DNA of 62,969 nucleotides, filler included, from Neolecta irregularis DAH-3 (GCA_001929475.1; 14 parts of 14 records of this genome joined end to end with filler, not necessarily neighbours in it), one strand, 5' to 3'. Shown: positions 5,451 through 62,075, counted from the whole stretch's first letter. Notes: generated by a model from the sequence alone, not told the origin. Numbers and translations are program-made.

Positions 5451-5585
5451 GTCACATATAGGTTAGTGTTAAATTTGGACATCTGCTGTGTTAAGAATGT
5501 CTCTTTTTTGGCCGATAGTTAATGAATGAATATGATGATGATGATATGTATAAAAAGATTCAAGCTTGTACCTAAGATACTGGTT

Positions 5586-8500
5586 TTAGATTTCTTTTTG
5601 AAATTGTTGCATTTGAACCATCTCAAAATACTTTCCACGTAAAACAAGCAATTCATTGTGTGTTCCTTGTTCAACGAGTTTTCCTCTCTCCATGAAATAA
5701 ATCACATCGGCGTTTTGAACAGTTGAGAGCCTAAACTTGAGTATTATATATAATTCGAGAATCGTACCGGTGAGCTATAGCAATAGTTGTGCGTCCTTTC
5801 GCTGCTGTCTCGAGAGCTTGATTGATACTAACTTCAGAGGCTGAATCCAACGCGCTTGTGGCTTCATCAAGTAATAAAATCATCGGTTTCCGAAGCAGTG
5901 CACGAGCGATGACGATGCGTTGTTTCTGGCCTCCACTCATCAGGTTTCCTTTGTAACCACATATAGTCTCATAACCTTGCGGAAGCGATTCAATGAATTC
6001 GTGTATGTTGGCATCCTTACATGCGGCTATAACTTCATCGTCAGTGACTTCGCGATTTATGCCAATTGTAACGTTGAACCTGACAGAACCTTCAAGTAAG
6101 ACCCAGAAGAAGATAATTGAACCTTGATAAAGAGTTGGTTCTTGCGAGACAAGAGAAATATGTGATCTGTAGTTCTCAAGTTCCACCTCTTTTATATTTA
6201 CTTCGTCAACAGCTACAATACCAGAAAGTGGATCGTAGAATCTTTCAATAAGGCTGATTACTGTCGATTTCCCACAACCTGATTGACCAACCAATGCAAC
6301 AAACTCGCCTGGCTTAACGTCAAGGCTGAAACCTCTTAAGATTGAAATATCAGGTCTGCTAGGATACTGAAAGCACACGTCTTTTAGAGATATTGCCCCA
6401 CTTTTAACAAGAGGCCTCCTGTTTCCAGTATTGGTGCCAATGAGCGACGGATTATCTAACAAACGGAAAATATTTGAGGCTGATGTGACTGCTCTGTTGA
6501 TATCTGGCAATAAACTGGCCATGTGCCCGGCAGCTCGAGCTCCAAAAACAATGGCTATTAATGAAATGTAAAACTATTACTTAGTCAAAACGTGAACAAA
6601 CTTACATCGGTAAGTCCAACTTGACCTCGTCGAATTAATGTCGCACCCCACCAGAATGCAAGCGCATTGCACAAGAATAGGGAACTTTGCGAGCAGGCAT
6701 AGAAAATTGAACTCTTTATATAAGCATTAACCAAGGATCTTGATGGACTCGAAAGACTCTGCGAATACTCTTTCAGTAGCGGGATTTCCCAAGTAAGGCT
6801 TTGTACTGTTCGAATGTTTGCAGCCGCTTCACACGCAAGCCTTGCAGATTTCTGATAAGCCTTTTGAACCGAAGTCCGAAAAGTTTTCAGCACGTTGATT
6901 CTAAAATAACCCGCCGATACGAGGACCAAAATTGTACTCATGACAAGTAAAGCAAGCTTCCAGGCGACAACTAATGATAAAATAAGACCGCTAGAAATTT
7001 GGAAGACAATAATGATAATAGTGTCAAGAGGTAAGTAACATTAAGATCATAATGGGACATACGAAGAATGCTACCAGTCAATCCTTTCAAACTGGCCGCG
7101 TCAGTAGCAAGAATACTTGTTAGAATGCCGCTATCATTTTCATCTCGGTCAAAAAACTCAATATCTGAATGAACAAGCTTACTGAAAACCCGTTCACGGA
7201 CACGAAGAGTTATTTTTTCAGCACAATACTCAAAGATAAATCCAACTAGAAAATAGCAAAGAAATGCTATTACAGCAACAATTAACCAAAGAATTGCAAG
7301 AAAATTGGCCCGGTCTAGAAGCTGCCGTGTTTCTGATGCTCCATGCGATAGAACTTCGATGAAGTGAGCAAGGATCTGAGCCTGTGCAATGATAAGATTT
7401 CCACAGACAGCGGTAGCAATAAAACCGATAGCAAGTAAGAACTTTTCGGGCTTGTTGAAACACATAATTCGATAAAAGAGGTGGAATGCTGAATACTGTC
7501 TGTCTAAATTTCCGGGTTGCACACATGATTGGGCATTTGAAGCGATGGTTTTCTTCATGGAACTCCCTTTAAAACAAGCCGCCATAACATCTTTAATATT
7601 ATTTGGATCATCAGTTCCTCCTATCTGGTCAAGTTGAGCGCGCAATCTCTGAGCTTCGACAAGTTTCCAATATTGGTCCTTTCTATTCATGAGCTCAATA
7701 TGAGTCCCTTGCTCAACAATTCTGCCAGCTGATATGACAATAATACAATCTGCATTCTTGATTGTGGAGAGACGATGAGCAATAACTATCGTTGTACGTC
7801 TCTTTGCTGCCCGATCCAAAGCATCTTGGACAATCCCTTCGGACGGTGTATCCAACTCGCTAGTGGCTTCATCCAGTAGTAACACCTTCGGACGAGAAAC
7901 AATGGCTCTAGCAATTGCAATTCGTTGTTTCTGGCCTCCTGATAATAGAATTCCTCGTTCACCGACTTGAGTTTCGTATCCTTTAGGTAGACTTCGGATA
8001 AACTCATCAGCATTGGCCTCCTCACAAGCATCGTGAACCAATTGTCGCCGAATCTGGACGCTTGCGTTCTCGTATTTACATCCAATTAAACCTCGGCATA
8101 TGTTCTCGAATATTGTGGTAGAGAAGAGACTGGGTTCTTGAGAGACCAGAGAAATCTGCTGACGAAACCATTTGAGGTTGAGACACTTTATATCATGACC
8201 ATCAAATAAGATTCGCCCTTGGTACTGATCATAAAAGCGTTCAACAAGGTTGAAAACTGTGCTCTTTCCGCTACCGCTGGCTCCAACCAATGCAGTTATT
8301 CTTCCAGCCGGGATCTTCAAACTGAAATTATCCAAAACAGTAATGTTCGGTCGTGCTGGATAACTGAAGCTGATGTTCTGAAATTCAATTTTCCCATGAG
8401 CTTTAGGCAACGTTTTGCCCACATTGTCGAGGGGTTTGCTAGCGTTTTGGTCGATGACTTCAAATATCCTTTTTCCTGCTGCCGTGGCAGACGAAATTGC

Positions 8501-9753
8501 TGAAATACTCGGTGTGATCTGGCCTAAAGACATGGATGCAAGATTGACAGCATAAAAGACATTGAAGATTATGCCGGCTGAAATTTCTCCTCTGACAAGC
8601 ATATGAGCTCCATACCAAAATGCAAGTGCCTATTGATGTAAGTAGTCGACCCGGATTCAAGAATATTTACGTATCCTGAGTATATAACAAGCCAGGTGAC
8701 AGCCATGAGGAATCCGAGAGCAATCGACTTCTTCTTGCCCTCATCAAAGGCAAGTGCAAGATGAGTATTGAAAATTGCAGAAAGCTCTTTCTGCATACCA
8801 AAAGCTTGAACAGATCGAATATTGGCAAACGCTTCTTCTGCCAATGCTCCCCCGGCGGAATAATGAGCTAGTGCGACTCTAGTGCACTTGCCGAGAACCT
8901 TTCCGGTCCACCTCATTCCTACAGATAGCAAAGGTATAATGTAAATCGATATAATAGCGAGCTTCCAGTTCTTGACGAAGGCAATAATGAGAGCACTGAT
9001 GAATGTGGCTAAGGATGTAATAACGATGACAACCTTTTCTGAAATTCCTTCTTGGATAAGAGTGGCATCGCTGGTCTCTAGTTGAATTCTTGTTAAAAGA
9101 GATTGTACCCTGTTATTCGTGTAGTAATTTCTCCGGCACTCACTGTATCAAAGTAAGCAATATCTTGTTGTATAATTGCCTGCAGATAATTCTTTCGAAT
9201 TTTCTTAGTTATCCGATCACCGATGAACATCCAAGAAAATGTAGCGATCATTGTAGAAAGAAAAATAATAACAGCCTTGATGTTAACAGAAAAGTCATAT
9301 CGGAGCTTTACGATATATACGAAGTATAAAATTGTGTGATTGACATTGGTATGGAATCTATCAGCATCGTGTTGACCTGACTTGAAAAACTGTACTGGTC
9401 AATGCGAGAAAATATACGGTCTTGATACATTCGTGAAAAATATAGTGAGTTTACCAAGTACAATAGAAAAGAGGGGTAATGAAAACCCGGCTTCATAAAT
9501 TAGCCATATGTTTGCTTTTGGCCTTCTCTGTACCAATGCTTGCCATGATGAGTCCGAGACACATCAAAGCAAGGTCTGCTCTTGTTGCATAACGATATAA
9601 TTTCAAATAGACAAAGTCATTGATCCTTCTATTCGATCGGCTTAGAGTTTGATTGCATCCTTTGGGTAACACCGAGGCCACTCGTTCCTCTGGAGATTCT
9701 TTTAGATCCACAACATTGTGGCTTGGTAATGGGCATTTCTGTGCGGTCTCCAT
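5586..9753 (-). CDS. Full-size ABCB/MDR (P-glycoprotein, Pmd1-like) exporter, about 10 exons
   Basis: Two NBDs ([34 protein letters not shown]) and two TMDs; introns hand-spliced; stop at 5586-5588. Confidence 0.95.
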
Positions 9754-11920: not shown

Positions 11921-12516
11921 TCAGGTCAAAGAGGAAAATGGACAGGTGAGTGGGTTGACGGACTTAGAGTTGAATTTTGGTGTGGCAGTCAATATCCCGT
12001 CAGCGGTGTCACACATACTTGTTAGCAAATTTGTTCTATGAGTAATATTATCGCCATTATAAATACGTAATCCTAATAAATTTAGTGTTTCGCTTTCAGT
12101 CAGATCACAATTAGGGATTTGCACATACTAATATTTGTAGTGATGTAACCCCATTCTTTGCAGATGTCTTGGACCCAGGCAATCGATATCGAATTGTCCA
12201 GGCATCGATAGACACTACTAACATTTTCATGAGTAAGTTTAGTGCCATTGACATCAAATTTGTTGTAGTTGAAACCGTTTTGAAAGCACATATGATTATT
12301 GTAGAGACGGGTCGGCCCCAGGCTTGAAACGACAAACGTCCCATTTGTTACTGACGCTTTGATGGTGGGTTCGTTAGTTCCGGCCATGAGACATTGCTGG
12401 GAGTTTGTGATAAGAGGGAAAATCCCTCCTCCCAAGTTTTCGTAATGCCATGAGTGCATGTGACTGGCGGCATTGATTGCAAAAGCGAAGTTGACGAGGA
12501 TAGCGAGAAAGTTCAT
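11921..12516 (-). CDS. Small secreted Cys-containing protein, 2 exons
   Basis: Signal peptide MNFLAILVNFAFA; a GTATGT...TTAG intron joins ORF 12100-12516 to ORF 11921-12124 in frame. Confidence 0.7.
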
Positions 12517-13543: not shown

Positions 13544-13705
13544 CAGTGTTGGGGATGGACTGCGCCAGTGGCTTAGGCGAAGCGCCCATGGGCCTGAATT
13601 GACAATCGGCAGGCAGACAGCTTAGGTAACTGCCCTGGACACACTGCCTATTAATGCCCATGGGCGCTAGGCCCAAGCCACTGTCGCGGTCCATCCCCAA
13701 CACTG
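13544..13705. mobile_element. Complete 162-bp hAT MITE with 8-bp TSD
   Basis: ~50-bp imperfect TIR (CAGTGTTGGGGATGGAC...GTCCATCCCCAACACTG); AATGGGCT duplicated at 13536-13543 and 13706-13713. Confidence 0.95.
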
Positions 13706-14190
13706 AATGGGCTGCGTGCTGGTTGTGGTATAAGGCGTGTTTTATGCTGTTTCATTTTCCTGTCTACAAACTCTTTTGTGTCAGGGACGTGAGATAGCTG
13801 TTGGTGGGGAGGAATCCTATAGTTCCTGTAAAACTAGCTTATCTGAGGAGGTATTGGATGATTGCGGTAGTTTTGCAGCGACCAGTGCTGTTGTGGAAGA
13901 CAAGACAGTTTGGGAGGTTGGAGATGTAGCGGACCTGGTGTCTTGTGTTGCGGAGATTAGTGACGAGGAAGAGGTATTGCGTCGCAATGAACGGCCCTAT
14001 ACTTATAGTTGTCAAGTTCTCTTATAGGATGTCGAAAAAGATGTTGGATTTCCAAAGAAAGAACCCACGCTGAGTTGGAACAGCGACTGGGAAATAAATA
14101 ATTTAGATTGGGGACTCTTGTTAAATCCCAATGAAAAGAAGATCGTTGCAAGTGGGAACTGATTGAATTATGCAGTCGGGTCACCGTTAA

Positions 14191-14490
14191 CAGTGTTGGG
14201 GACGGGCCAAAGCCCAGCCCATGGACCGGGCCAGGCCGGGCCTAACATGTGACACCCGTTTTGGGTGGTGGCATACTGGGCAGTGATGGGCAGGGCAGGG
14301 ATATGTTAAAAAGCAAGTATAAGTTGCTATATTATGAATATAATCAGACTTGCTAATAAGTAAGTCATTCAAGTCAGACTTGCTTGCTTACTGGAAAATA
14401 AAATTAGCAAGTAAGCAAGTACAATAACGTAGACTTGCTTGTTTGGACTTGATAGACTTGACTGTTTAAGACTTTTAATGAGACATTGAA
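14191..14490 (+). mobile_element. CAGTGTTGG element end followed by CAGACTTGCT element end
   Basis: Termini at 14191 and 14345; second part matches 19851-20020. Confidence 0.7.
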
Positions 14491-15222
14491 TATTTTCTTA
14501 ANNNNNNNNNNNNNNNNNNNNNNNNNNNNNNNNNNNNNNNNNNNNTTAATTAATTAANNNNNNNNNNNNNNNNNNNNNNNNNNNNNNNNNNNNNNNNNNN
14601 NGGAGACCCTTCGGCGGGCAGGGGCGGGCGGATGGGCATTGTATATATGTTTGCTGAATTTTCACATTGGGCAGGCGTTTGACAGTTTCTGTAACGATAT
14701 ATCTGGCATATTGCGTGGATACATATTACAAATATAGTATGAGGCGTAGAATTAAGTAAGAGCAATTAGTATATAGACTATATAAGGGCAGGCCCAACAT
14801 CTCTTACCTAAGCGTAAAGGTCTACTAAGAAATATAACCGGATCATATTTGTACGCTACGATTCACTACTTACAGTTTCAAACAAAATGCTACATTAAAC
14901 ACTTTATCCTCTGTTACTTTTATTCAACCCGCCCAAGTCGCCCACCAGAGTGTTCCGGGGGGCAGGCGTAGAGATTTCCTACGATCTTGAAAGAGGGTGA
15001 CAATTATTCGACGTTGACTACTTTAAAAGAGTTTGCTGTTCCTTCCATCATTTATCCTAAAATGCAGGATGATAAGGTAACCAAGTGGGATAATTTTCTC
15101 ATTTCGAAAAAAGGGGACGTGCTATTTATAATGATTTCAATTGGCAAGCACTTCTACCTTATGCTATATAAATCCCTCTACGTTCGCACACTACGTCTCT
15201 CTACAACTTTCTCTCACGAATA

Positions 15223-20313: not shown

Positions 20314-21414
20314 TCACCGCTTATTTTTCATATTTTCTAGAAAAGACCTCATACTTTCGAATGTCCAAAGAGTACATATTGTAGCCGGGACTGTCCTCAC
20401 CAGATTAACAGTTAGTCCGCTATACAACCCTCTCCAACCTTCCTCAGCAACTACACATTTTGCACAATGAATGATACCAGAATACTTTTTGCTACTTTGA
20501 AGGCGAGTACGGATTACCTCGTGGGGATAGGTTATGCAACTTGCAGTAATTTTCGATACCGTTGAGGAAAAAAGAATTGCAGGCGTTGTTGTTCCGAACT
20601 TGAACTTCAATGATTCATAGAGGGGAAACTGCACAGCTACATGCGAGACTCCGAGGAGAGAAGGGCCGAGACCTAAATAGAACGAAAAAATGCTGGACTT
20701 AGTTTGTCTTGGAGTAACGCCTGTATACCCTTCCTTGCGATACATTTGATGAAATGCATTAAGTGTTGACGTATATCTGTACTGAGATGTAGTATTTTGA
20801 GTCTGGAGAATCAGAGTGATATCTTTATTAGGCGCCAGACCATCAAGCGCGTTTTTACTACCCATATTGGATTTGTAACAGTGGTTGACGTAACACCGCC
20901 AATAAGTGCAGATAATATATGCGATGCATGAGGGTGTGAAGGTAGTTCATCTGTCCAATCAGCATGTGTCACAAAGCTTAGTCGCATAAAACATGGCGTG
21001 GCAAGATGCAAAATATTTCAATGGCAATTGAGAACATTTAAGTGATTTTCAGCCTCAACCTTTCCATCAAGTTCTGCCGTAGATTTAAAGCCTCGAAGAA
21101 ATTTTACCTCGTAACCTGCATTTCGCTCGTTCGTACACAGTGAAGTAGACTGCCCAGGTGGGTAGATAACCCACCATCATGGGTCCCAGCCCACGATAAA
21201 GACCTCTGATGCCCTCCTCATGCCATATCCTCCTTAAGCTCCCATCCAGGCTTTTATATAACTCTGGTGATGCGAGGGTTAATCCGCGCTGCGCTTGCAT
21301 CCGTGTTTTTACCACATCGAGAGGCGTAATCAGAATACTGCTTGCGAACCCAGCAATTGCCCCACTGATTGCGTTTATGGATACTTCATGCAGATCGGTG
21401 AGGACAGAAGACAT
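20314..21414 (-). CDS. Mitochondrial carrier, NAD+ transporter (YIA6/NDT1-like), 4 exons
   Basis: Three carrier signatures PLDVVKTRMQ, PIWVVKTRLM and PHEVIRTRLQ; GYLPTWAVYFTVYE; start uncertain. Confidence 0.9.
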
Positions 21415-34699: not shown

Positions 34700-35136
34700 N
34701 NNNNNNNNNNNNNNNNNNNNNNNNNNNNNNNNNNNNNNNNNNNTTAATTAATTAANNNNNNNNNNNNNNNNNNNNNNNNNNNNNNNNNNNNNNNNNNNNA
34801 AAGAAACCAAAGTAATTAGCAATCGTGTGCCATTAAAGGGCTGATACGAGAAGTAATGCTGTCAAATAAATCTCCAGTTTCGAAATCTCGAAGCCATATA
34901 TCCTGGAATATTTTGTCATTATTTAGACCGATTATGAAGATCTTGGGAATATTTAGCCAGTATGCGGTTCGAAGCTAGGTGGCGGGCGTATGAGTTCAAT
35001 GAATTGATAGAAAAAGCCAAACAGGCGTCTTTTGGTCTTATAGCGATACCTTTCGGAGAGTCGGGAGTACTTTCGGCGCTAAGAAAATGGGAATTGAACA
35101 TGTCCGTAAACCGTATTATGCAAATCATTGGTTCAT

Positions 35137-35245
35137 GAACGCTATGCGCTTAGAAGTACGATAAGACCAAGTGTTATAACTAGCCTAAGTAAACGTACTT
35201 TTACAAAGGGACATACCTAGCCTAAGTAAACGTACTTGGCTAGGT
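35137..35245 (+). mobile_element. Partial short LTR
   Basis: gcttagaagtacgataagaccaagtgttataactagcctaag family core. Confidence 0.75.
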
Positions 35246-35504
35246 AAGTCTGTCGCAGAAAAATGGTACACGTGGTGTTTTCTGGTTATCTGATGGGGTT
35301 TCCTATTATTATACGCTTCCTTGGTTTACTACAATGACGTGACTCATACTTGTAAAACTATAAGTAGTCCTGTATCTGCACATTTGTAGGATGGTTGGAT
35401 AATGCTCTATCCATCCTGCTAAGAATCAAAGAATCGTTTCCATCTTTTTCCTCTATGTTTCCAGAATCCTAAAACCTCAAAGATGCTACAACTACAACCT
35501 GCGT

Positions 35505-36245
35505 GTAACCAGCCCATGGACCGGGCTCAAAGAAAAGCCCGGCCCATTGGCACACGGGCCAAGATGAGCTTCTTTCACGTGACACCATGGTTAAATGCCA
35601 ACCACCACCATGCCACCAAGTGTGGCGCCCACTTGCTTCCTCTCACTAGTCACTCCCCTGACTCTACCGATGCCCTATACCCCTCACTCTACCAATGCCT
35701 ATACCCCTCACTCTACCAATGCCTATACCCCTCTCTCTACCAATACCTATACCCCTCTCTCTACCAATGCCTATACCCCTTACTCTACTGATGCCCTATA
35801 CCCCTGCACCACTGCCTCGAAGCCTTTGTCAAGCGCCTGTTGCTGCAAAAAGTGCACAACCTACACAGATGTGCCTGCTACAGTTACTCCTGCCAGCCTG
35901 CTCAAACTCCTCTCCCCCTTCCCGCCTGCCTCTCCTGCCTGTCCCTCCCTCCTGTCCCTCCCGCCTTCCTGCCTGTCTCTCCCTCCTGTCCCTCCCGCCT
36001 TCCTGCCTGTCTCTCACCTCTCCCACCCATCTCCCCACCTCATGCTCAAGTCTCACCCATCTCGCGTGCCTCCCCCACTCGCCTTCCTCATGCGCATCTC
36101 CCGCTTCTCCCGCTCACCTGACTTGATTACTTCACCTACCTCAACCACCTTTCGCCCCTTGTGCCCCAATCTCTCCTGCCTCCCACCTTGCCCGTCTTGC
36201 ACGTCTGGCCCGTCTGGCCCGTCTGGCCCACCTGCCTGTCAGTTC
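35505..36245 (+). mobile_element. Degenerate CAGTGTTGG-family element carrying a 24-bp minisatellite
   Basis: gcccatggaccggg...gggccaagatg...ttcacgtga as at 62349-62440; about 6 copies of ccaatgcctatacccctcactcta at 35668-35805; C/T tract. Confidence 0.65.
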
Positions 36246-37156
36246 CCTTGCCAATATTTAGATAGATATAAGGAAGTATATACATAATATAACAATTTAT
36301 ACTTGAATTGTGAATGTTGATTGTTGTAAATGGATGGGTGGTAGTGGGTAGGGTTCTTAAAGTTGTGCTTATGATCTTTGATATTTTTGATGAGAAGAAA
36401 GGGGGCTGGGGGACTAATCTATAAACTTGCAGAACACAACATACTTCCTTCCAGTACACACTGTAGGTAAAGGAAAAGCTAAGCTAAGCCCCATTTACAT
36501 ACGGTGACTCGTCAGCAGGCCCCATACTCCCAGTACGATTGATCTCGTTTTCTCGGTAATAATGTTCGTGTAACATGGCGAATACGACATCATGATATCT
36601 GCCTCGTTTCCTATCTACCTGCCATGCACATATGCATTATTTTAGTCCTGAATCCGATGCAAATGAATATAACCCAATGGGCAATGGAAGCATTGAGGTT
36701 CTTTGATCTGCCGCTAGTGACGACTGGATGGGGCGGTCTGAGCACGGTTTGATATGTCCAGTTTGAATTGCACAGAGAACTAGCTAGTACAACAAGGTAT
36801 TTAACGCACATGGTGTATTCAAGTCGATTCGTGATTGACAGTTTTCATTTATCAAGAATTTCTAGATTGAAATTCATCTGGAAAGATCGTCGACATATGG
36901 GAACCAACAGCCTAGCTTCATAAGCGCACGGAAGATCAAGGCAGGATGCTGGAGAATCATAATTGGTATTCCCTAGTAATCAAGATTGCAACTTTTTCAT
37001 TAATCATTAGGAATTGGGCCACAATATCCAGTTGGGAGTCCCATCTTGATTTGTTATTTGTAGGTGTAGCTGCGAATTATCTGGATTTTCATCTAGGACC
37101 CATTTTGCTGCCACTTTTGTAGTGCGTTTTCAACAACAAAATAGTATATGGATCGT

Positions 37157-37410
37157 CCAAATTCATCAAATTCCAATTGTAAGCGCGCGTTCATAAAAGA
37201 ACAATTAATGAAATTATTTTTCCCACTCCACGGGTTTGGCGCGCCAATAAAATACCTCCCACCATTCTTCGAACTTCATCTACAAAATAGAGGGATATGG
37301 GCGATTTGTCCTCTCTGGTGTCGCGAAAAATTTGCGAGGACCCGACAAAAACTATTCCAAGAAAGAGGTGCACTGAACGCGCGCTTCAAATTGCAATTTG
37401 AAGAATTGGC
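37157..37410. repeat. ~37-bp inverted repeat pair (foldback/MITE-like)
   Basis: ccaaattcatcaaattccaattgtaagcgcgcgttca versus tgaacgcgcgcttcaaattgcaatttgaagaattgg. Confidence 0.7.
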
Positions 37411-38145
37411 AAATTCCATGAAGTTTGGCGCGCACCGAAACAACTTATTTTTACAAAATCACCACGAATTTCATGAAATTCAAAAAAACCGGGTTTCTCT
37501 GATGCAAAATTGAAACTTCTGCAAGTCCACCCATCGGTACTATCCATCTCGATACCTTAATTCATGTCGACAAAACTTAAAAACTTGAAAATGGTTGATG
37601 AATGGCCTTATCCATCTGAACCTCGAGTGACTGGGATTTCAGACAAATTCATGAGATACTATCAATGGTCGTCAACAGCTCATCCCACTTCCTCAACAAC
37701 CTGCTGATATCGATGCCTGGGCTATGAGGGCTAGAGATTGGAGATCGATATACCAAATGATTTGGTGTAGTTCCTGGTTGTATTGAGCACATGGTCCTTG
37801 TCGAATTGCTCAAATGTATTCACGTTGTTGATGATTCAAAACCTCTGTATATTCCATTGGATATACCGAATTTGTTAACTTGTAAGCACATGAGCACAAA
37901 CAAAAAGCATGGTAAAATATGCCGGTGCTATCATATACGGTTAGCAGCATAAATAATAAAACATAACGAGATATCCCTGTATTTAATATGACCACAACCA
38001 TGTAAAAAGTGCAGTTTATTAACATATCTATCAATTGGTCTAGAGTATATATAGTAAAAGACTTGCTTGTGCTTGAAATTCTCTCTGTTCCCATGTGGCA
38101 TTCGATACGATGAAGAGAATTAGCAAATCATTTCAAATCTACAAG

Positions 38146-39971
38146 TCAATGGCAAGCGTATGAATCGTACGCCGCATCCCTAGGATACACGTTTACATGA
38201 CAATGGCCATCTGCAAGGAGAAGATGTTCCTTGAATTCATAGGGAGCATTCGGATCAACAAGTTTGGCATCAAAACATAAAACCCAGTAAGCCAATGTCA
38301 GCCGAAGTTCTGCTTGCACAAGTCTAAAACAAAGTCAGTGAGAGTTAGCAAGGGCAAGGTTGCCATACGTTTGTCCAATGCAAGCATGAACGCCCACGGA
38401 AAAAGGTAGGTGTACTGTTTTTCCCATTGTTTGATCCAGATGAAAGCCGGGATCCAACCACCTTTCTGGCATGAATACGTCTGGATTTGTGAAATATCTA
38501 TCATCGTGATAGATGCTCCAATTCGGTACAATGACAGAAGTGTCTTTCGGGATGATATGGCCTCCTACTTCAACATCGTCCAATGCGCATCGCGGGGACA
38601 TTAAAAGTACAGGTGGCATCAATCGGGATGTTTCCCTGATCACCGCATTTAGATATTCAAGTTCTGCGAGTTTACCGTTTGTGATTTGATCCGGCGACAA
38701 TATTTCAAGCTCTTTACCAAGTTTATGTAAAACGTGAGGGTGTTTAGCGATCTGAAATATGGCAGAAGTGAGCATTGCTGATGTTGTCAGTTCTGTAATT
38801 AAACTAAAAATAAACCCGCTGTGGAATAGCTCCCAGCAACTCTGGCACATTAGATGAAAACAAAATTTGGATAGTCTTGCATGAATGAATCCAGATTAGC
38901 GATGAGATGCTTTCTTAAAATCCCTGGATCGCTGCTTAAACCATTTACATATTGATAAAGATGTTCAAAGAGATCTGGTTGTTCGTACCCTCGGGAAATG
39001 CGCTCATTCGCTCGATAATTATAGTCCTCGCTCATCAACAATACAAGCACAACATAGGAAGATCACACCTCGAGAATCATTATTCGCTTCTTGAGAAGAG
39101 ATTTCGGGATGAAGCGCTGGATGGGTGCAAGCCATGACAATACAAATCCCTGCCTTGTGAAACATGACGATAGGAAAAAGACCATACATAGCTTCCTAAG
39201 ATCACGCAATTTTCAACAAATCTGGGTAGCGGATGGTGGCCGCCAACCTCGAGCATGCCGTATGATTTTCCAAAGCAGAAAATTCCGAGGATGTCAAACA
39301 CTAGATAACTCAAACATTCTGCCATGTCCTTGAATTTTGTCAAGTATTTATGTGATTGAGGACAATATACCAGTGGTGTTTTTCCGTCATTACCAACTTT
39401 CCTAACAAGGGCACAGAATAGTTTTACCTTCTCGAGGATGTTGTCCTCGATCCCATCAATGGCTTTTTGAGAAAAGCTAGGAGCGACAGCCCGTTTCATT
39501 CGTAAATAGGTAGTCGTATCGCGTTCGGTGGCGAAGCCTTGGATCAACGGATCATCATTTAAACGCTGGAATGCTTTGTCTTTCATGAATTTTGTATCAT
39601 GGCCGCGTGTAGCTTCATGTCAGTCGGTGTGATATACAGGCCACTACCCTGATGGGCATCCTTATGACAAATTGAAAGAGTATTGATACCGACTCGAACG
39701 TGATCGCCTGTACAGCATTTAGCAGGTAATAATGAGGAAAGATATCACACACCGTATTGAGCATGGAGCCTTCTTAAGGATTTATGGCGCTGGCCTTTGT
39801 ACAATAACATGAACGGCCATAACGGGTTGACTTTTGCCCAAAACGGACCAGGAAATGCAGCCAGCGGATGAAGATACACTTGGTAAAAGAGATATATGAA
39901 AGTCACCTATCCCTCTATTAATTATGCCCGTAAATAAGACAAGGTACGAGACTAAGGAAATGGAAAAGCAT
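38146..39971 (-). CDS. Cytochrome P450 (P450-1), 10 exons
   Basis: HPLAAFPGP, ExxR (ETSR), PERW, heme motif FSVGVHACIG. Confidence 0.93.
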
Positions 39972-40531
39972 TGTGCACAATAATTTCGTTTAGAGCTTCC
40001 GCTTGAAACAAGACAAGCAGCAACTTTGGGAGGTTCACGACTATATTCTGATTACCTTGCCCTAGGTTTGAAGAAGGTCGAAGTTGTTCGAAAGTATACA
40101 AAGCCGAAATAGGATAAGCAAGTTGTAAAACAGGAAGTGTCAGAGTTATATTCTTACTGTCTCTGGCTCCAGCTGCCATTTAAAAGAATTTAAATCTAGT
40201 GCCTTCTTTTCTTGCAAGATCGAGCTATTTAAATATGACAAATAAAAGGAAAAGCTAACTAAAGGGAAAAACAAAAAAGTGACCGTTGGTTATGTCAAGT
40301 GCTGTTCAACCGTCTAGCCGACATGGACTGTGTTAGCTCACAGTCCTGTAGGCTTACTACGGCCTGTTGTACGAGGATGATATAGTAATCTTTTGCAGGA
40401 TGTTTTAAAAGGGTCTCTTGTTTGGCTTTTCATTTGGTCAGAATCTAGGTTCTTATAATCGACACGGTTATATCTGTTTCCTATAAGTAGACCTGTAGGT
40501 GCTTGCTTGTAGGACGAGTGAATAATGCTCT

Positions 40532-40727
40532 TGTAAGTTTTGATACTCTGAAGTACAAATAAGACCAGGTTTATAGTACTAGCCTAAGTGTTGTATCTTC
40601 TAGGGAAACACATCTAGCCTAAGTGATGTATCTCATGCTAGGTATTCTAATTACATCAAGTTTATATCAGGCAATAAAGGCCGCAATATCATTCCACGCC
40701 TCTTGCCGTATTGGTAAGGTGTTTAGA
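40532..40727 (+). mobile_element. Solo short LTR with 5-bp TSD GCTCT
   Basis: TGTAAG start; GCTCT at 40527-40531 and 40728-40732; empty-site versions of the host repeat at ~10380 and ~35405. Confidence 0.85.
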
Positions 40728-41572
40728 GCTCTATTCATCCAGCAAAGGAATCTAACGATCTGTTTTCTTGAAGTCATCTAAGTCTGCAAAGATCTACAGC
40801 TGCAGCCTGCATGTTACAGGCCTTATTTGCTGCAAGGTAGGCGGGTTTAGTAGGACAATAGGAAGGATAGGGGAAGAATGATCAGAATAATAGATATATT
40901 GAAGAATATGGGTTTCTATAAGCTTGTACCACTTATATTCATATTGTATCGTATTCGCTAAACATAGCCCTGTTCAGTCTTGCTCTCATATTAGGCCAGG
41001 TACAGGCGTTGAAGTATGGGCCTGGATTAATGACTCAACATTGAAAAATGTTGACCAAAATAACATCAATTAGTACTGGGAAATCCTTACAAATGGCCTA
41101 TCCAGTCTTTCTGTGCTGGGCTAAACTATGTCGATTCTACAAAGACCACTATCCCCGCAATTTCATGTTGCAGCGCCCATGTGCAGGTGCTTGGCAGGGG
41201 GCAATGGAAAGGAGGAGTAGGACGGGTGTGGTGGGGTAGATGTGGAGGAGCGGGGCGAGGGGGAAATCAGTGGGGAGGGAGAGGGAGGCAGGCTGGAGCG
41301 GGGAGTGGGTGACGGCAGGCAGAATAGTCCGTGTGGAGCTGCGGAGGGCATGGAGTGCTGTGTTGGTAGATGGAAGAAGACAAGGGCCAGGAGCAGGTAC
41401 TGAACACATTGTTGTCGAGACTGGGGTCCCCAGACAAATTCAAAATATGCTTCTGACGGTTCTATGATAAAATATTAATAAATACAACTCATTGAAAACA
41501 ATTTACAATAAACATTATGCGAGTTCAAACGCCCAGACAATATCTCAGACACGCAGAGTATTTCCTCACACG

Positions 41573-42451
41573 TCAGACATCTTGCTTTAGTGAATATTTC
41601 TCAACTTTGGTTTCTGATAGAGATTGGTCGCTTAGAGCAGAGGCGACGAGTAAACTTTCTTCGACAGCTTTGAGGGTTCTAGTTCTCTGGGCAGAGGTGA
41701 TTGCAAATACGGCAGAGTAAGCTTTGAATGCCACACCTCCTCCGTATAGCGCCATGCATTCGAGCGCAAGATAACCATAAATGGTGAAGACTAGAGCGTA
41801 TATTCCAGCTCCACAGGCCACCACATTCGCTTCCATTAGATATTCGAGAACACTCCTTGTTGTTTGAAAGTTTTCGAAATTGAGTGGCATTTTCGTCAGC
41901 ATCTTACTGCACAGAATGATGGAGTTAAACTCCATCGTCACAAATGCCACACAGCATGATAGGTTCCACCACTTGCTGATGTCTAAAAGCAAGGGTTTAC
42001 CAGTGCTGAGTGCGAGTATATGCCAGGGAATTGCGCTGCAGACCATGAACTCACCGAAGAGGAATATAACTTTTGAATACTGCCGTTGGCGCTTATCAAA
42101 CAATTGCCTAGGCATACGAGTCCAAGATATTGCCATCTCGAAGCATCCATACAAATTGTGTCCAATAAAAACAATGTTGATAGGAAGTCTGTAATAGCCT
42201 TGAATAATAAAAAGTACTGCAGCAAAAAGGCTCGATATAGCCAGTCCTAGAAAATAGGCTTCATGCGCGAATAATCTGGCAAGTTCTCTTCTTGACCTCA
42301 GCGCTCTACTCATTGGAACCAGCATCTAGAATCTTAAAACAGTGACCTCGGCAAGAAGATATACCACCAATGAACAGTATACCACGAAGATAAACGTGCC
42401 ACTCTGCAGGATCCATCGGTCAGGTGTGTTTACATCAACACCGAATATCAT
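41573..42451 (-). CDS. Orphan 7-transmembrane protein (~279 aa), 2 exons
   Basis: Exon 1 MIFGVDVNTPDRWILQSGTFIFVVYCSLV, 39-nt GT-AG intron, then the 250-aa ORF; seven hydrophobic segments. Confidence 0.75.
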
Positions 42452-42922
42452 TTGGCGAGTGAGTATCTAACCGTGGTGATTCATTAAGCCTCGTGCACCG
42501 GCTCGCCCTAAATAGCCGTTCCAGCCCGCGGCAGTTGAGGCCAAAACTCCGGCGCCCCTCCCGGATCAGGGTCATTGTCCAGATCTGGTTCCGCTCTCCC
42601 AAATCGGGAGAACGGTGGCGTCCTACATGCCGGATCCAGCCTGTACCTTCGAGTGGTAAAGCCAAAACGGGAAACTGAACGCCAAAAGTCCTTGGCCTGG
42701 CCCGGCCCATCCACACCACTGCTTCTAGGCTAGGAGCTCAACAGAAGCTTCAGCGCAATGATAAAGAAAGTTCTTATAAAACAGTTTCAATCAGTGTACT
42801 TGGTGGTATATTATTCAATGATGAAATGATAAAACAATTATAAAACAATAATCGGCTTTTTTTCCCGATGGGAGGAATTGGTTTTTCATCTCCTCATCAC
42901 CTCAAAAATCAAGATACTGCGT

Positions 42923-44770
42923 TCATGGAGACCCGCATTTCAAGGAATGACATTTAACAAAGAGTGGTGGCTTGAACGCGGTCCAGTGATCTCGATTTTC
43001 GTAACAAAACTTTGGGTCCTCTAATTCAGGGCGGAATTGCAAGACGAAGTGTGCGAGGAACAAACGAAGTTCCATATACGCCATACTACAACATCAAATC
43101 CGATCACATGAAAGGGTTACTTACTTGCGTCCCAAGCATCCTCTTGGGCCAAGAGAAAATGGCTGACTGATACGTCAGTAAAGGAGTTTTAAAAGTTCTT
43201 ACAACGCTAACTTTCCAAGAGTTTGATCGCGCTCGAATCCTGGGTCGATCCATCGTTCTGGGATGAAGTTTTCCGGTCTTGTAAAATATCTCGTGTCTCT
43301 AGAAATTGCATACGGAGCAACCGAAACAATGCAATTGGCCGGTATCTTCTGTCCAGCAACGACATTTTCTTGAGAGGACACTCTGGGCAAAGGACCAAGA
43401 CCTGCAGGGTATAATCGCATTGATTCCTCAATCACAGCATTTAAATAAGTTAGACTGACTGTTTTGTGATGTTCGATCTCACACTTTGGGTCAGGGAATC
43501 GTTCAATCAACTCTCGATGAAGCTTTTCGAGAACGTCATGATGAGTTGCAAGTAAATATATCGCACCGTTGAGTACAACTACCGGCGATTAGCTGCAGGG
43601 AAAAGTGAAATGGAAGCGGCGTACTTGAAATCGTGTCACCTCCAGCAACTCTGAATATAATCAATTCGGAAGATCACAGTGGAAGTCACGTACATAAGAA
43701 ACGCACAAGTTGCATATAGTTGGTCACGAACTCCCCGAGCTGCTCTCTTGAGCTTTTCAGGATCTGTGAGGTAGTAGAGGAAATCCTTCCTATCGCTTTG
43801 GTTTGCCATTCGTTTTTTGACCTTACTGACTGATTGCTAAATGTTTTGGAATAGTGTGTGAATATGGAGATACCTCGCCTAGTTGCGTACGTGCTTTCTT
43901 CAGGTGATGCGGTGATAAGCGGAGAAGCGGTAACAGCCCTGGACAAGACAAGAGCTACAAGCTTCAGCAACAGTCTAAGAGAGACAAACCATTCCATTGA
44001 AGTAAGTGTTTCGTTCGATACAACCCATGAGTGGTTTCACCACTCCAACCTCTAGTAATCCAAATGACTTTCCGAAACAAAAGTCGCCAACTATATCAAA
44101 CGTCATGAAAGGTATCCAGTTAGACATATTCTAGATGTGAGGATTATTGCATGCAACACCTACCACAGACAGTTCTCCATTCTTTCCAAACTTTCGAATA
44201 CAATCGCAGAAGGTGTTGACGCTAGCTTTGATATAAATTTCCATGGAATCGAGCGCCTTTGTGGAAAATGCGTTTGCCAGTTGCTTCCTCAACAGGTTGT
44301 GAACAATTGGATCGGTCTCGGTAAAGATATTTGAATATTTCAGGTCGTTGGGAAGAATTCTGTACCCTGCAGCCTTCAGGAAAGTAGAGTCGTTGCCGTA
44401 AATTTCCGAAAAATCAACATTCGTATAATTTTTGAGTCACGAACCTCTTTGCGCTTCAAATTTGCATACCGACAACTCGTTGATTCCGATACGAACGATA
44501 TCGCCTTTCCGTAATTCAGTGGGTAAAGGGAAGAACGGCATTTACCATATTTTTGATGCAGGTGTTTGAATTTCTTGTGTCGTTCGCCTGTGAAGAACTG
44601 GCACAGATGCCAAAATGGGTTTACTTTTGCCCAAAGCGGGCCTGGAAACTTTGAAAGTGGACTTAAACATGTCTGATATACTACCCAAATCAAAGAGACC
44701 AAATGCGTTAGCAACATTTTCAACAATAAAGGGCTGATACTAGAAGCACTATTGTCGAATAAACTTCCAT
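42923..44770 (-). CDS. Cytochrome P450 (P450-2), 11 exons, two non-AG acceptors inferred
   Basis: SPLSKFPGP, AGGDT, ESMR, PERW, FSLGPRGCLG; no stops or frameshifts seen in the exons read. Confidence 0.9.
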
Positions 44771-46039
44771 GTTCAACCGATCATAGAAATCTATAATCAG
44801 ATTATTATCGATGAGGGTGAACGTTGTAATATTAGTCAAGTTGGAAGGATCCAAGGGGTGTGAGGGTTTGCCAGTTTTTAGCAAAAACGAAGCTGGCTAC
44901 TCGTTATCTTATAACCCTGAGTCTCGATTCGAAAGCGCTATCGGGTGATAATAGAACAGGGCTGGACCATGTCGATAAAACCTGTGGTGCGAGATAATCA
45001 TTGGCTCATTTTAAGGGGTATCCCTCCAAGATCTTTTTCTTCACATGCGCCCTACTTCCTACTTGAAGAATACTTGACTGCCGATCTTTGAATGCAACAT
45101 GATGGGACTTTCTATGGTTAGCGTTGATGTTAGTGAAGTATACAGTCTCCCTATTCTTTTCCTGTCGGCTCCGAAACAGGAGTATATTTTCACTCGAGGG
45201 ATCTTCCCAAATTCCCAGTGCCATTGTCTCTATGATATGAATATTGCCTGTTATTTCTATTGAGATACTCTGTGGTTAAAAACTAGTTCAAAGTTTATTA
45301 GTACTTTTTTTCCATGATTGGTACCGTTTATCTCGATTATGATTTTCATGTTACGGGCCCAGAACGAAATCATGATATTTGCTACGTATCCTCTCAGGCG
45401 ATCCCCTGATATTTTGCATTACTTTAGTCTTGGAATCGATAAGAATGAATATAGCCTCTCGACCAGCAATGGAAGAAGGGAGCCTAACCCGGCGGCCCCT
45501 AACCCTAACCATCCGCCCGGCAAGTCCTCTGGTGGGCTGTTCGGCAATTGGGCGATTGGGCGATTGGGCGATTGGGCGATTGGGCGGGTTGGATAAAAGG
45601 AACAGAGGGATAAATGTGTTGCATGTTATATTGTTCAAATTTGGTTTCCAGTCAAAGAGGTTACAATTGTCTGCCGAATGTGAAAATTCTGCCAACCTAT
45701 ATCTCAATGGAGCACTTTTTCACCCCACTGGAGGTGAGATTTCATCTTGGCACAGATTTCATCTTTATCATCACCATCTTCATTACCAACTACATAATAT
45801 TTACCAATTTCAACTGGGTCACAGAAAAGTGGCACACCTGCAGATGCTGGAGGATCAAAGACAAGTATTCTAAATAAGAAGACAAAGGTGACAAGGCTGG
45901 TGGCAATTTCACAGTATGAGCAGCTTGTGCCAGTTAACAAGAACTCCAAGATAAAAATATAATGTAATAATTAAGGTGGAGGGTGGAGGTTGGGAAAGGT
46001 AAAGTAGTCAATTTTACATTTGGAGTGGTTACGGAAATG

Positions 46040-46223
46040 TGTAAGCTGCATGCTTAGAAGTACGATAAGACCAAGTGTTATAACTGGCCTAAGTAGACGT
46101 ACTTGGCTAAGTATTTCCCCGTTCCCGTCCCTATATACTATTTACATCAAGCCTCATCAGCCGCCCTACCGTTTCCGTCATTTCCGTCTTTGGTAAGGAT
46201 ATACTCGAGTGTATATCCTTACA
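46040..46223 (+). mobile_element. Solo short LTR (184 bp) with perfect 5-bp TSD AAATG
   Basis: TGTAAG...CTTACA; AAATG at 46035-46039 and 46224-46228. Confidence 0.92.
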
Positions 46224-46714
46224 AAATGTGTCTAACTATGGGGACTCGGAGTTTCCGATACTAGCACAAATCCCCAGGTCGCCACAATCACCACCCAACC
46301 TTTGGCAATTGTTCAGTATCACCTGCGCAAGCTGAATCTCATCGCCCACTACAGCTGCGCCCAGCTGGGGGTGCTGCAGACACCCTCGCAGGACCCGCGC
46401 CTTAGAGACATTGTCCCGCCTGCCATGCTGTATCCTGACGTCCGGAGACGGAGTGGGGGATAGTCTGGAGGTGGGCGTAGCGAGCGAGGAGGGTAATGGC
46501 GGTGCTCTCGCCGCCGGGGATGATGAGTGTGTTGCAGCGGGCGAGGTGGAAGGTGGCAGTGTGGGCAAGACGGTTGAGCCAAATTTTATTAAATATGGAG
46601 GGCACCAAACGCGCGCCTAAACTTTGGATTTCATGAAAAGTCACCTTTTATAAAATGTGGAGCGCACCAAACGAGCTCCTAAAATTTTAAAATTTTAAAA
46701 GTCACATTTTAATA

Positions 46715-46850
46715 AGGTTTAGATCGATTAGACCGGTCTATGGGCTGTTTAGACTGACCAGACCAAGGCATCCAGTGGTCCAGACCGACTAGACCAAGGG
46801 TCTTGGTCGGTCTGGTCTGGTCGGTCTGGTCCAGTCGATTAGGAACGCTG
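46715..46850 (-). mobile_element. CAGCGTTCCTA-family element end with GACC/GGTC arrays
   Basis: Inverted copy of 61679-61785. Confidence 0.75.
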
Positions 46851-47016
46851 GACCAGCCCGCCCGTCGGAGGCTTTCCGACGGCGGCGGGCGGGCGGTTGG
46901 ACAAACTGGTTGATATCTGATACCTTGCTCAAATTCCGAATTTGATAACTATATGGTACATATAAATGGAAAATAAACAATCAATCGTGTATTGATTTTG
47001 TCATTCAATACTGGAT

Positions 47017-48852
47017 TTATGCAGAATCTTCTTTCAAAGGACGACATTTAACCATCACCGATGGCTTGAACGATAACACGCGATCTTGAACTCCGTAATG
47101 ATATTTTGGGTCCTCCAATTCAGGTCGGAATTGCAAGACGAAATTTGCGAGGAACAAACGAATTTCGATATATGCCATACTAATTCATCAGGCTTGACCC
47201 AAAAAAATGGCTGTTTACTTGCGTCCCAAGCATCTTCTCGGGCCAAGAGAGAATGGTTGACTGATACGTCAACTAGCAGACATTTCAAACTCTTACAACA
47301 CTAGCTTTCCAAGAGTTTGATCGCGCTCGAATCCTGAGTCGATCCATCGTTCTGGGATGAAGTTTTCCGGTTTCGTAAAATATCTTGGGTCTCTAGAAAT
47401 TGCATACGGAGCAACCGAAACAATGCAATGGGGCGGTATCTTTTGTGCAGCAACAACAGTTTCTTGAGAGGATACTCTGGGTAAAGGACCAACAATTGGA
47501 GGATGTAATCTCATTGATTCGTCAATTACGGCATTCAAATAAGGTAGATCTGCCAATTTGTGATGTTCGATCTCACACTTTGGGTCAGGGAATCGTTCAG
47601 TCAACTCTCGATGAAGCTTCTCGTAAACGTTATTATGAGCAGCAAGCAAATATATCGCCCCGTTGAGAACAACTATTGGTGATTAACTGCAGGGCAAGAT
47701 TAAATGGAAGCAGTGTACTTGAAGTCGTCTCACCTCCAGCAACTCTGAATGTGATTAATTCCAGTCCTGAATTGAAGTCACATACATTAGAACAACACAG
47801 GTTGAAACCAATCGATCACGAAAATCTTGAGGTGCTTTCTTGAGCCTTTCAGAATCCGAGAGGTAGTAGAAGAAATCATTCCTATCGCTTTTGTTTTCAA
47901 TTCGTTCGTTTATCATTTCCGTCGATTGCTAAATGTCAATGTCGTATGCAAATGGAAAGGAAACATTGATAAGCTGCATATGTGCTTCCTTTATATGCTT
48001 TGGTGACAAGTAGTGCAGTGGTAGCAATGCTGGACAAACCATTATCTAAGTTTCAGCAACAGCCTATGGGCTATGAGAGATAATGCCATTCCACCAAAGT
48101 AGATATTATTCTCGATACAAGTGATCAGTGGCTTCATCATCCCATCCTCTTGAAATCCAAATGACTTTCCGAAACAAAGGTCCCCAAGAATATCAAATGC
48201 CAGGAAATATGTCCAGTCGGACATATTCTAGATGTAAGAATTATGGCGTGTAACATATACCAGTGCCAGTTCTCCATTCTTTCCAAACTTTCGAATACAA
48301 TCGCAAAAGGTGTTGATGTTGGCTCTGATATAAACTTGCATGGAATCGAGCGCCTTTGTGGAGAATGCGCTTGCGAGTTGCTTTTTCAACATGTTGTGAA
48401 CAATTGGATCGGTCTCACTGAAGACAGTAGAATATTTCAATTCATTGGGAATTGCCCTGTATGATGCAGTCTTGAGGAAATGAGAACCGTGACCGTAGAT
48501 CGCTTAAGATCAACATTGATATTATTGAGCAGCACCTTCTAGTGCTTCGACATTGCATACTGACAGCTCGTTGATTCCAATTCGAACGATATCGCCTTTA
48601 TTCAGTGGGTAAAGGGACGAACAGCATTTACCATATTTTTGATGCAAATGCTTGAATTTCTTGTGTCGAACACCAGTGAGGTACTGGTACAAAGGCCAAA
48701 GTGGGTTTACTTTTGCCAAAAACGGGCCTGGAAACTTTGAAAGTGGGCTCAAACATGTCTGATATACAACCCAACTCAAAGATACCAAATGCGTTAGCCA
48801 CATGTGTAACAACAAAGGCTGATACTAGAATTATTATTGAAACAATGTTCAT
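47017..48852 (-). CDS. Cytochrome P450 (P450-3), close paralog of P450-2, 11 exons
   Basis: AGGETT, ESMR, PERW, FSLGPRRCLG; same intron positions as P450-2; alternative start at 48879. Confidence 0.92.
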
Positions 48853-49682
48853 ATTCGATTGATCTAGGAAAGTAATCATCAGATTGTATCAAAGGCTGAG
48901 AGGGTTAGGTTCGAATATTGTAATTGGAAAGGGGCGATGGTTCGAAGGATGTGAAAAGCAAAACCGGTTCTGGTTATCTTATTCTTACGACTCTCGGAGC
49001 TTTGGGAACGCTTCTTTATAGGGGTGAATAAAGCCGATTAGACCTGTTGTGCGTGGTAAATCATTGGCTCACAGTGTGTCCAACCGCCCGCCCGCCGGCG
49101 GGTCTCCGGCGGGCGGGCGGGTCAATACAATCNNNNNNNNNNNNNNNNNNNNNNNNNNNNNNNNNNNNNNNNNNNNTTAATTAATTAANNNNNNNNNNNN
49201 NNNNNNNNNNNNNNNNNNNNNNNNNNNNNNNNTGAGCGGGAGAGGTGGCAGTTTGACGCAGATTCACAAATTAAGTGGTGTCCTATGTTTATCGGCTGTA
49301 GTAGACTTGGTTTGCATGGTCAACAATGAACACTCACAGGCCCTGCCCACCTCACCCGTTCCTTCTCCACCTCCCCTTCCTCATCCTTTGTCGCCCTGCT
49401 CTCTCACCTATAATCGCCTGCCTTCCTCGCCTACTATCGCCCCACCATCTTGCTCATTACTGCTCCCCCTCCCCCTCCTCGCCCCTCACCCTTTATCTCC
49501 CCGCCCTCTGACCCGTTATCGCCTGCTATCGTCCACCCACCTCGCCCGTTACTGCTCCCCCTCCCCATCCTCGCCCTTGATCTCCCCGCCCTCTCACCCA
49601 TTATCGCCTGCCCTCCTCGCCTGCTATTGCTGTTATCACCCATTCTCAACTGTACCAAACATACCTTATTTCGCACTATGAT

Positions 49683-61678: not shown

Positions 61679-62075
61679 CAGCGTTCCTAACCGACTGGAC
61701 CAGACCGGCCAAGCCCTTGGTCTGGTCCGTCTGGACCGCTGGAATCCTTGGTCTGGTCTGTCTAAACAGGCCATAGTCTAGACCATCCTATGAGCTAACG
61801 TGCAAATCCCATGGGTAAGTAGACTGAAATTTTAATCATTAAATACTGCCACTAGAAATCGCATCGGCAACCAGACTTGCTTGCTTGCATATTTCAGGCC
61901 TTTGGACTTGCTTGCTTGGACTTACTTGCTATTTTCCGTGCAAACTTGGACTTGCTTGTCTGGACTTGCTTGATAAATCTTTTTACAGTGTGTCCACCCG
62001 CCCGCCCGACCCCGCCGGAGACCTTCCAGCCGGCAAGTAGGTCAATCAATCTCCGGCAGGCGGGCGGGCGGGCGG
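61679..62075 (+). mobile_element. Cluster of hAT-type ends (CAGCGTTCC 61679, CAGACTTGC 61872, CAGTGTGTCC 61986)
   Basis: Matches to other copies in the window. Confidence 0.8.

Follow-up and report, generated by a model that had tools for sequence, protein, structure and literature searches.

A putative TG acceptor in the first intron of two tandem cytochrome P450 genes of Neolecta irregularis

The stretch of DNA analysed here (the window) spans 62,969 nucleotides (nt) of the Neolecta irregularis DAH-3 genome (GCA_001929475.1) and consists of 14 contigs chained by linkers of 44 N, TTAATTAATTAA and 44 N; adjacent pieces may not be genomic neighbours. One piece (34800-49132, 14333 nt) carries three tandem cytochrome P450 paralogues (P450-1, P450-2 and P450-3), which lie head to tail on the minus strand. 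A protein search with an open reading frame (ORF) from a P450 exon returned P0001 (98%) and P0002 (81%), both from N. irregularis DAH-3, as the top two matches. These are the NCBI models of P450-2 and P450-3, and both have a precomputed match to the cytochrome P450 family (PF00067). The initial annotation of the window proposed that the first introns of P450-2 and P450-3 begin with GT and end with TG, and the coordinates and sequences that it gave for them were confirmed on the minus strand. The genes, their first exons and their first introns are as follows:

38146..39971, minus strand: P450-1 (g1), about nine introns, all ending in AG, one with a GC donor
39971, minus strand: start codon (ATG) of P450-1, whose exon 1 has 8 codons
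39907..39947, minus strand: P450-1 intron 1, 41 nt, GTACCT...GATAG, a canonical GT...AG intron at the homologous position
42923..44770, minus strand: P450-2 (g2), 11 exons and 10 introns, 485 amino acids, with the same introns from guides P0003 and P0006
44741..44770, minus strand: P450-2 exon 1, 30 nt, MEVYSTIVLL, start ATG at 44770
44700..44740, minus strand: P450-2 intron 1, 41 nt, GTATCAG...GCTAACGCATTTG, GT...TG
47017..48852, minus strand: P450-3 (g3), 10 introns, 484 amino acids, with intron 1 spliced by analogy with P450-2
48826..48852, minus strand: P450-3 exon 1, 27 nt, MNIVSIIIL, start ATG at 48852
48786..48825, minus strand: P450-3 intron 1, 40 nt, GTATCAG...GCTAACGCATTTG, GT...TG

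The gene models came from a protein-to-genome aligner written for this analysis, which accepts GT or GC donors and AG, TG, GG or CG acceptors and charges 8 extra points for any non-AG end. Its guides for the P450 genes were P0003 and P0006. Together with P0005, these proteins were found by the protein search, have 480-485 amino acids and come from source records of 1630-1660 nt, which are too short for ten introns and thus point to cDNA-sized sources. A homologue search using the N-terminal exon alone found none. The P450-2 model has the same length as P0003 (485 amino acids) and is 100% identical to NCBI P0001 across 350 residues, and its exon 1 aligns with the first 10 residues of P0003 (MDIYWTTLLL) and P0006 (MEKYITLFFL). 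Its introns (33-46 nt) comprise eight GT-AG, one GT-TG (intron 1) and one GT-GG (intron 3), and the GT...TG solution was chosen at intron 1 with both guides despite the 8-point penalty. For P450-3 the aligner returned nine introns, including one GC-AG. The P450-2 and P450-3 models align end to end with P0003. Homology-free scans that joined ORFs did not discriminate among acceptors: AG ended 73 of the 992 candidates and other dinucleotides 44-89 each, so AG was not enriched, since a real junction is compatible in frame with many possible boundaries.

Both first introns have a GT donor (GTATCAG) and the trinucleotide TTG (44702-44700 in P450-2; 48788-48786 in P450-3) where a canonical U2-type GT-AG intron would have its AG. 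The TG acceptor is thus paired with a U2-type donor and a pyrimidine at position -3 (GTATCA...TTTG). The good branchpoint that the initial annotation placed ahead of the TG is a CTAAC matching YTRAY, the best branch site of the entire gene, with its A at 44708 in P450-2, 8 nt ahead of the 3' end. Local introns measure 32-46 nt (median 38.5, n=34). Of these, 21 bear a YTRAY motif, whose A lies 7-11 nt ahead of the 3' end in 20 cases and 16 nt ahead in the remaining one; the TG, 8 nt past the branch A, falls within the 7-11 nt range. Introns are very short and uniform throughout the window (e.g., 6574-6605 and 44131-44163) and their donors are highly variable at positions +3 to +6 (GTATCA, GTTCGT, GTTTCC, GTGCTG). 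This suggests that intron recognition leans on length and position.

The two copies have conserved the parts of intron 1 with predicted roles in splicing. The 14-nt donor block TTCTAGTATCAGCC is identical in P450-2 and P450-3, as are the last 13 nt of the intron; the middle differs by five substitutions and one 1-nt indel, and exon 1 with its leader is merely 58-67% identical. Judged on sequence, this conservation profile is that of a working intron. Exon 1 differs in length by 3 nt between the copies and intron 1 by 1 nt, so that both copies are in frame only when cut at the TG. The proposed correspondence with the AG acceptor of P450-1 also held up: in a three-way DNA alignment, the 3' junctions of the three first introns share one column, immediately before VTFIYLFYQ (P450-1), VSLIWVVYQ (P450-2) and VSLSWVVYQ (P450-3). 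In the 27 nt past the junction, P450-2 and P450-3 differ at three sites (two synonymous, one replacement), with no stop and no indel; the earlier claim that these codons differ mostly synonymously is right in direction and rests on three differences.

Sequence identity around intron 1 is 52-55/60, no higher than in other conserved exons (up to 59/60), and gave no sign of a recent gene conversion confined to this region. The shared TG, the well-diverged flanks and the absence of any sign of local conversion indicate that the TG is older than most of the divergence between the copies and that it has been compatible with selection on the protein. Occurrence in two copies had been offered as an argument against sequencing error. 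Because the copies are paralogues, however, the simplest view is that they inherited the TG from one ancestral change, so that they do not count as independent observations.

Transcripts of homologues locate the junction. A scan of metagenome contigs identified two spliced transcript contigs, L001 (which encodes P0005) and L002, in both of which intron 2 is already gone. Each aligns gap-free with P450-2 spliced at 44741|44699, over a span that starts in the 5' leader and reaches exon 2, with scores of 135 (L001) and 140 (L002) versus 113 and 131 for the unspliced sequence. Similarly, P0003 starts MDIYWTTLLL-VPLIWVIYQ and P0006 starts MEKYITLFFL-LPLTWVVYQ, with exon 1 joined to exon 2 at the proposed junction. 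The contigs share at most 74% protein identity with any N. irregularis paralogue compared, which indicates that they come from another organism. Thus, L001 and L002 fix the location of the junction, not the dinucleotide that ends the intron in N. irregularis.

We also identified acceptors other than AG at two unrelated sites in the window, in P450-2 itself and in an ABC (MDR-type) transporter gene on a different piece:

44406..44444, minus strand: P450-2 intron 3, 39 nt, GTTCGT...TTTTTCGG, GT...GG, from both guides (P0003 and P0006)
2944-14501: piece of 11558 nt bearing the ABC transporter gene and carrying N. irregularis protein P0028
7025..7062, minus strand: ABC transporter intron, 38 nt, GT...TG, found with 4/4 guides and unrelated to the P450 introns

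P450-3 has AG at the site matching the GG of P450-2 intron 3. An alignment restricted to AG acceptors bridges this P450-2 intron solely via a stop codon, and only the GG junction retains the conserved EIYGNDSTFLK; the nearest in-frame AG would remove 13 codons. Nine introns were firmly placed between 9533 and 5731 in the ABC transporter gene, for which four fungal homologues (P0047, P0053, P0051 and P0057) served as guides; eight of the nine, including the TG intron, are identical with all four. Across 7062..7025 an AG-only alignment passes two stop codons, and a model spliced at this TG recovers about 35 residues belonging to a conserved transmembrane stretch. NCBI P0028 (1169 amino acids versus about 1300 in homologues) lacks these residues and avoids the TG intron by means of two odd introns. 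No in-frame partner AG accompanies the ABC TG intron. A further candidate in this gene, a GT...GG intron at 9417..9376 proposed with guide P0047, was rejected: 3/4 guides use a canonical donor at 9428 (9428..9390 twice and 9428..9381 once), and 9428..9390 fits the homologues better. The same gene has a 36-nt in-frame GT-AG intron (9276-9311, minus strand) that P0028 leaves as coding; homologues do not have those 12 residues.

Altogether, the 46 modelled introns comprise 40 GT-AG, 2 GC-AG, 3 GT-TG and 1 GT-GG, that is, 4/46 without AG in a census that is small, non-random (the window was picked for its TG oddity) and based on homology rather than RNA. It includes three firm GT-AG introns of a mitochondrial carrier gene and five GT-AG introns of a Rho-type GTPase gene, which were placed by eye using what we take to be GTPase motifs. 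Counting the P450 TG pair as one event leaves three independent non-AG acceptors, two of which have no start codon to rescue the protein. All four odd introns retain the last G and only the penultimate base is altered. The donors of the ABC intron (GTATGT) and of P450-2 intron 3 (GTTCGT) are plainly U2-type.

On balance, these data suggest that TG is probably the real acceptor of intron 1 in P450-2 and P450-3, tolerated in ultra-short introns; we hold this view with modest confidence. The junction, the selection on the genes (below), the conserved 5' splice and branch sites, the branch distance and the other non-AG acceptors all support the GT-TG splicing proposed initially; the use of the TG itself, and its efficiency, we infer from these signals. 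Several observations weigh against it. An in-frame ATG that is open into exon 2 lies inside intron 1 of both copies, making a start within the intron a workable rival. The aligner chose read-through over the TG intron at P450-3 with 2/2 guides. Exon 1 differs between P450-2 and P450-3 at 9/27 aligned sites (counted by eye in a codon alignment), approximately the synonymous rate. The ratio of replacement to synonymous divergence (dN/dS) is higher between the copies (0.42) than between each copy and transcript L001 (0.23 and 0.30), so some relaxation of selection is possible. L001, whose first ATG was lost, starts MLLLASLMW, 13 residues ahead of a conserved T; a short N-terminus is tolerated in the family, and the length of the membrane anchor, invoked in the initial annotation, gives splicing no advantage. 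Finally, the human TG acceptors described by Szafranski et al. (2007; PMC2374985) were found solely alongside an AG, as its alternative and no more than 28 nt from it; mutations of AG to TG reported there activated other AGs and not the TG. The sites on which the competing explanations turn are the following:

44715..44717, minus strand: in-frame ATG within P450-2 intron 1, open into exon 2, reading MLLTHL and then VSLIW
48801..48803, minus strand: in-frame ATG within P450-3 intron 1, open into exon 2 with no stop
44682-44681, minus strand: first AG after the TG in P450-2, +19 nt, out of frame, giving a frameshift and a stop
48776-48775, minus strand: first AG after the TG in P450-3, +11 nt, out of frame
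44674-44673, minus strand: AG of the in-frame CAG in P450-2, +27 nt, whose use removes 9 residues
48760-48759, minus strand: AG of the in-frame CAG in P450-3, +27 nt

Intron 1 could be retained after loss of its acceptor, with translation starting at the in-frame ATG (44717; 48803) to give M(L/W)LTHL followed by VSL(I/S)WVVYQ, and with the old exon 1 turned into 5' leader. The position of this ATG is shared by the two copies. A protein starting there would have 15 residues ahead of the conserved T, no fewer than L001 has. The near-neutral divergence of exon 1 and the read-through of P450-3 by the aligner are also as this explanation would have them. However, an in-frame open ATG occurs by chance in 4/39 of the other introns (about one in ten), and the upstream ATG persists in P450-2 and P450-3 alike, in a good context with an A at -3. 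Translation from the upstream ATG of P450-2 would read 16 codons and stop 2 nt short of the internal ATG; the corresponding frame in P450-3 runs for 86 codons out of register with the P450 frame, which it overlaps, and should block an internal start. Transcription probably starts upstream of the donor because the 5' leader of P450-2 can be aligned with the L001 leader upstream of exon 1. The intact donor block and the best CTAAC of the gene would draw an intron-retaining transcript into unproductive splicing to the first AG. Since the nearest AG is out of frame in both copies, scanning to it would wreck the reading frame. Retention also leaves the ABC and P450-2 intron 3 cases unexplained; it is the strongest of the rivals, and we consider it unlikely.

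Alternatively, the TG, GG and GC changes could be the first lesions of pseudogenes or poorly expressed duplicates that make no correct mRNA. Non-canonical sites do cluster (two in P450-2; one in P450-3, together with a poor GC donor), the P450 family has expanded and its copies may be redundant, and the raised dN/dS between P450-2 and P450-3 leaves relaxation possible in P450-3. Yet both genes are intact, with no stop and no frameshift across 485 (P450-2) and 484 (P450-3) codons. Between them we counted 102 synonymous differences at 322 sites (pS 0.317) and 173 replacements at 1130 sites (pN 0.153), corresponding to dS 0.41 and dN 0.17. Thus, pN is well below pS, and the TG predates that divergence. 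Both copies are under purifying selection despite their common TG, and the selection and intact frames argue against simple pseudogene status. Furthermore, acceptor dinucleotides are a far smaller target than coding sequence, such that lesions limited to splice sites are by our estimate unlikely under neutrality, and an acceptor of this kind also occurs in the ABC transporter, another gene whose frames are long and intact. Gene decay is, on this evidence, improbable.

The third alternative is canonical splicing to the in-frame CAG at +27 (44673; 48759), which would join exon 1 to TCLSPLSKFPGP and yield a protein nine residues shorter, possibly beside use of the TG. A CAG at this distance, costing nine residues and reached only by skipping a nearer AG, had been noted initially and was found in both copies. 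It would obey the GT...AG rule, keeps the frame in both copies and lies within the 28-nt limit of the TG/AG pairs of human introns. However, the 27 nt that it would remove act as coding sequence: their motif, V-x-L-x-W-V-[VI]-Y-Q, is kept in P0003, P0006, L001, L002 and P450-1. The introns would grow to 68 and 67 nt, whereas local ones measure 32-46 nt, and would end 35 and 34 nt past the branch A, against 7-11 nt locally (16 nt in one intron). In each copy, splicing would also have to pass over a nearer, out-of-frame AG. This makes regular use of the CAG decidedly improbable; a TG/AG pair with partial use of the in-frame AG, as in the human pairs, is conceivable. Sequencing or assembly error at the acceptor positions, which the initial annotation had already judged unlikely, is barely credible even in a draft assembly of short contigs, because the same base stands in two copies that have diverged at many sites nearby, non-AG acceptors recur at other loci, and the clean coding frames argue against an error rate that would hit several acceptor dinucleotides.

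If TG is the acceptor, intron 1 would be a spliceosomal U2-type intron whose acceptor changed from AG to TG before P450-2 and P450-3 duplicated. It would still be removed at the old junction, joining the 9-10 hydrophobic residues of exon 1 in frame to VSL(I/S)WVVYQ. In introns of 32-46 nt whose 3' end falls 7-11 nt past the branch adenosine, the 3' splice site may be picked largely by position. The last G, which would pair with the first G of the intron, would be kept, and the penultimate A, which would pair with the branch A, could be replaced by U or G. At the second step, AG is recognized through non-Watson-Crick pairs in which its G contacts the first G of the intron and its A the branch adenosine (10.1101/212811). 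Based on the three independent non-AG cases among the 46 modelled introns, we tentatively extend this idea to N. irregularis as a whole, as a possibility rather than a probability: the 3' rule may be relaxed to branch distance plus a terminal G, with several per cent of introns ending productively in TG or GG.

A functional TG acceptor would mean that the penultimate A of an intron is dispensable at a very short branch-to-3' distance, and would bear on the choice of site at the second step, including the ruler role proposed for Prp18 and Slu7. The novelty would lie in a TG acceptor at a conserved constitutive junction that has been kept through a duplication, with a further TG acceptor and a GG acceptor within the 63-kb window. 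Were the relaxed rule to hold genome-wide, constitutive non-AG acceptors that are also common would have in N. irregularis their first example among ascomycetes and among organisms with ordinary GT donors, and published gene models limited to GT-AG would be wrong at such genes. The three NCBI models examined (P0001, P0002 and P0028) are all truncated or mis-spliced at exactly the odd introns. P0001 covers only the 3' 350 amino acids of P450-2 and begins downstream of intron 3. P0002 reads through intron 1 of P450-3 in the wrong frame, losing the conserved SKFPGP motif, and skips a whole exon by a 215-nt 'intron'. Such faults suggest that Neolecta gene sets, and perhaps those of other short-intron fungi, may carry systematic errors. 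A public N. irregularis RNA-seq set (GEO GSE300630; PMC13263728) makes the TG claim cheap to test.

Other features of the window are recorded here. Two of the P450 introns have a GC donor:

48046..48086, minus strand: P450-3 intron 5, 41 nt, GC...AG, weak donor GCATTA; the NCBI model skips the adjoining exon
38842-38880, minus strand: P450-1 GC-AG intron, donor GCAAGA, at the position of P450-2 intron 7

In the loop region of the mitochondrial carrier (about 20951-21119, minus strand), four guides gave inconsistent models and the region was left out of the census; a very small exon or a further unusual intron may lie there. An ORF at 1569-2042 (minus strand) was considered for the census and rejected. 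It matches the U5-snRNA-binding domain of Prp8, then jumps to the end of Prp8 domain IV, and is flanked by low-complexity Gly/Arg/Pro-rich frames; its appearance is that of a rearranged gene fragment, on a contig of 2.8 kb. The GC-rich motif CCGCCCGCCNG occurs 11 times versus 0.03 expected (sites include 21878, 46886, 49084-49120, 58664 and 61998-62075), is partly an inverted repeat at 49084-49120 and often lies near contig ends or between genes; it may be a small repeat element.

A literature search for splice-site rules in Neolecta found nothing among the papers listed, with relevance judged by title. In the main text of the Neolecta genome paper (PMC5309816), the words intron, splice, RNA-seq, transcriptome and gene prediction are all absent. 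GT-TG introns are a described and very rare class, mostly of alternative events. In humans, TG 3' splice sites are known from U2-dependent introns of GNAS and 36 genes (Szafranski et al., 2007, PMC2374985; Parada et al., 2014, PMC4176328). Like the Neolecta P450 introns, the human ones run GT...TG, with a donor of U2 type and a pyrimidine at -3, and have an AG no more than 28 nt downstream (27 nt in the P450 genes). Human TG sites are over-represented among first introns (PMC2374985), and the P450 TG introns are first introns too. They differ in being minor or alternative partners of an AG, judged in that study incapable of constitutive use. The Neolecta P450 TG, in contrast, stands at an ancestral conserved junction whose partner AG would delete conserved codons. 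The distance from branch A to 3' end also differs (8 nt in the approximately 40-nt P450 introns versus 20-40 nt in humans).

The short branch distance invites comparison with Saccharomyces cerevisiae, where Prp18 enforces both a minimum branch-to-3' distance and a preference for YAG (PMC10711555). Without Prp18, yeast splices at 3' sites that lie 7 nt from the branch point and at sites other than YAG, BG among them, and substrates with short branch-to-3' distances are independent of Prp18 and Slu7 (PMC10711555). The sites used without Prp18 resemble those of Neolecta in keeping the last G, varying the penultimate base and lying 7-10 nt from the branch point. They differ in being a mutant phenotype with mostly aberrant products sensitive to nonsense-mediated decay (PMC10711555), whereas the Neolecta TG would be a normal productive site in a wild organism. 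Together with the uniformly short branch distances, the yeast data suggest that position may be the chief determinant of the 3' site in Neolecta, with U or G allowed at -2.

U12-type introns also tolerate varied 3' ends, and the P450 introns share with them a donor that begins GTATC and a short branch-to-3' distance. The U12 consensus has the donor [AG]TATCCTT and a branch site resembling TCCTTAAC; the P450 intron 1 donor (GTATCAGC) and branch region (TTGCTAAC) fit neither, and we rejected this class, as the U2-type donors of the ABC intron and P450-2 intron 3 also differ from it. Minor (U12) introns are reported to be absent from Ascomycota (PMC10639083).

Among fungi, the transcript-curated annotation of Ganoderma lingzhi lists 22 GT-TG introns, 0.024% of the splice sites in its Table 1 (PMC11590231). 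The two cases are alike in having GT-TG introns in a fungus, with transcript support in Ganoderma; they differ in frequency, with 3/46 TG and 1/46 GG among the homology-based Neolecta models. Appendicularian tunicates splice non-canonical introns genome-wide and thus offer an example of the GT/AG rule relaxed on a genomic scale (PMC13326754). Most of their introns are, however, non-canonical at both ends, whereas the Neolecta window keeps its GT donors and about nine in ten of its acceptors are AG.

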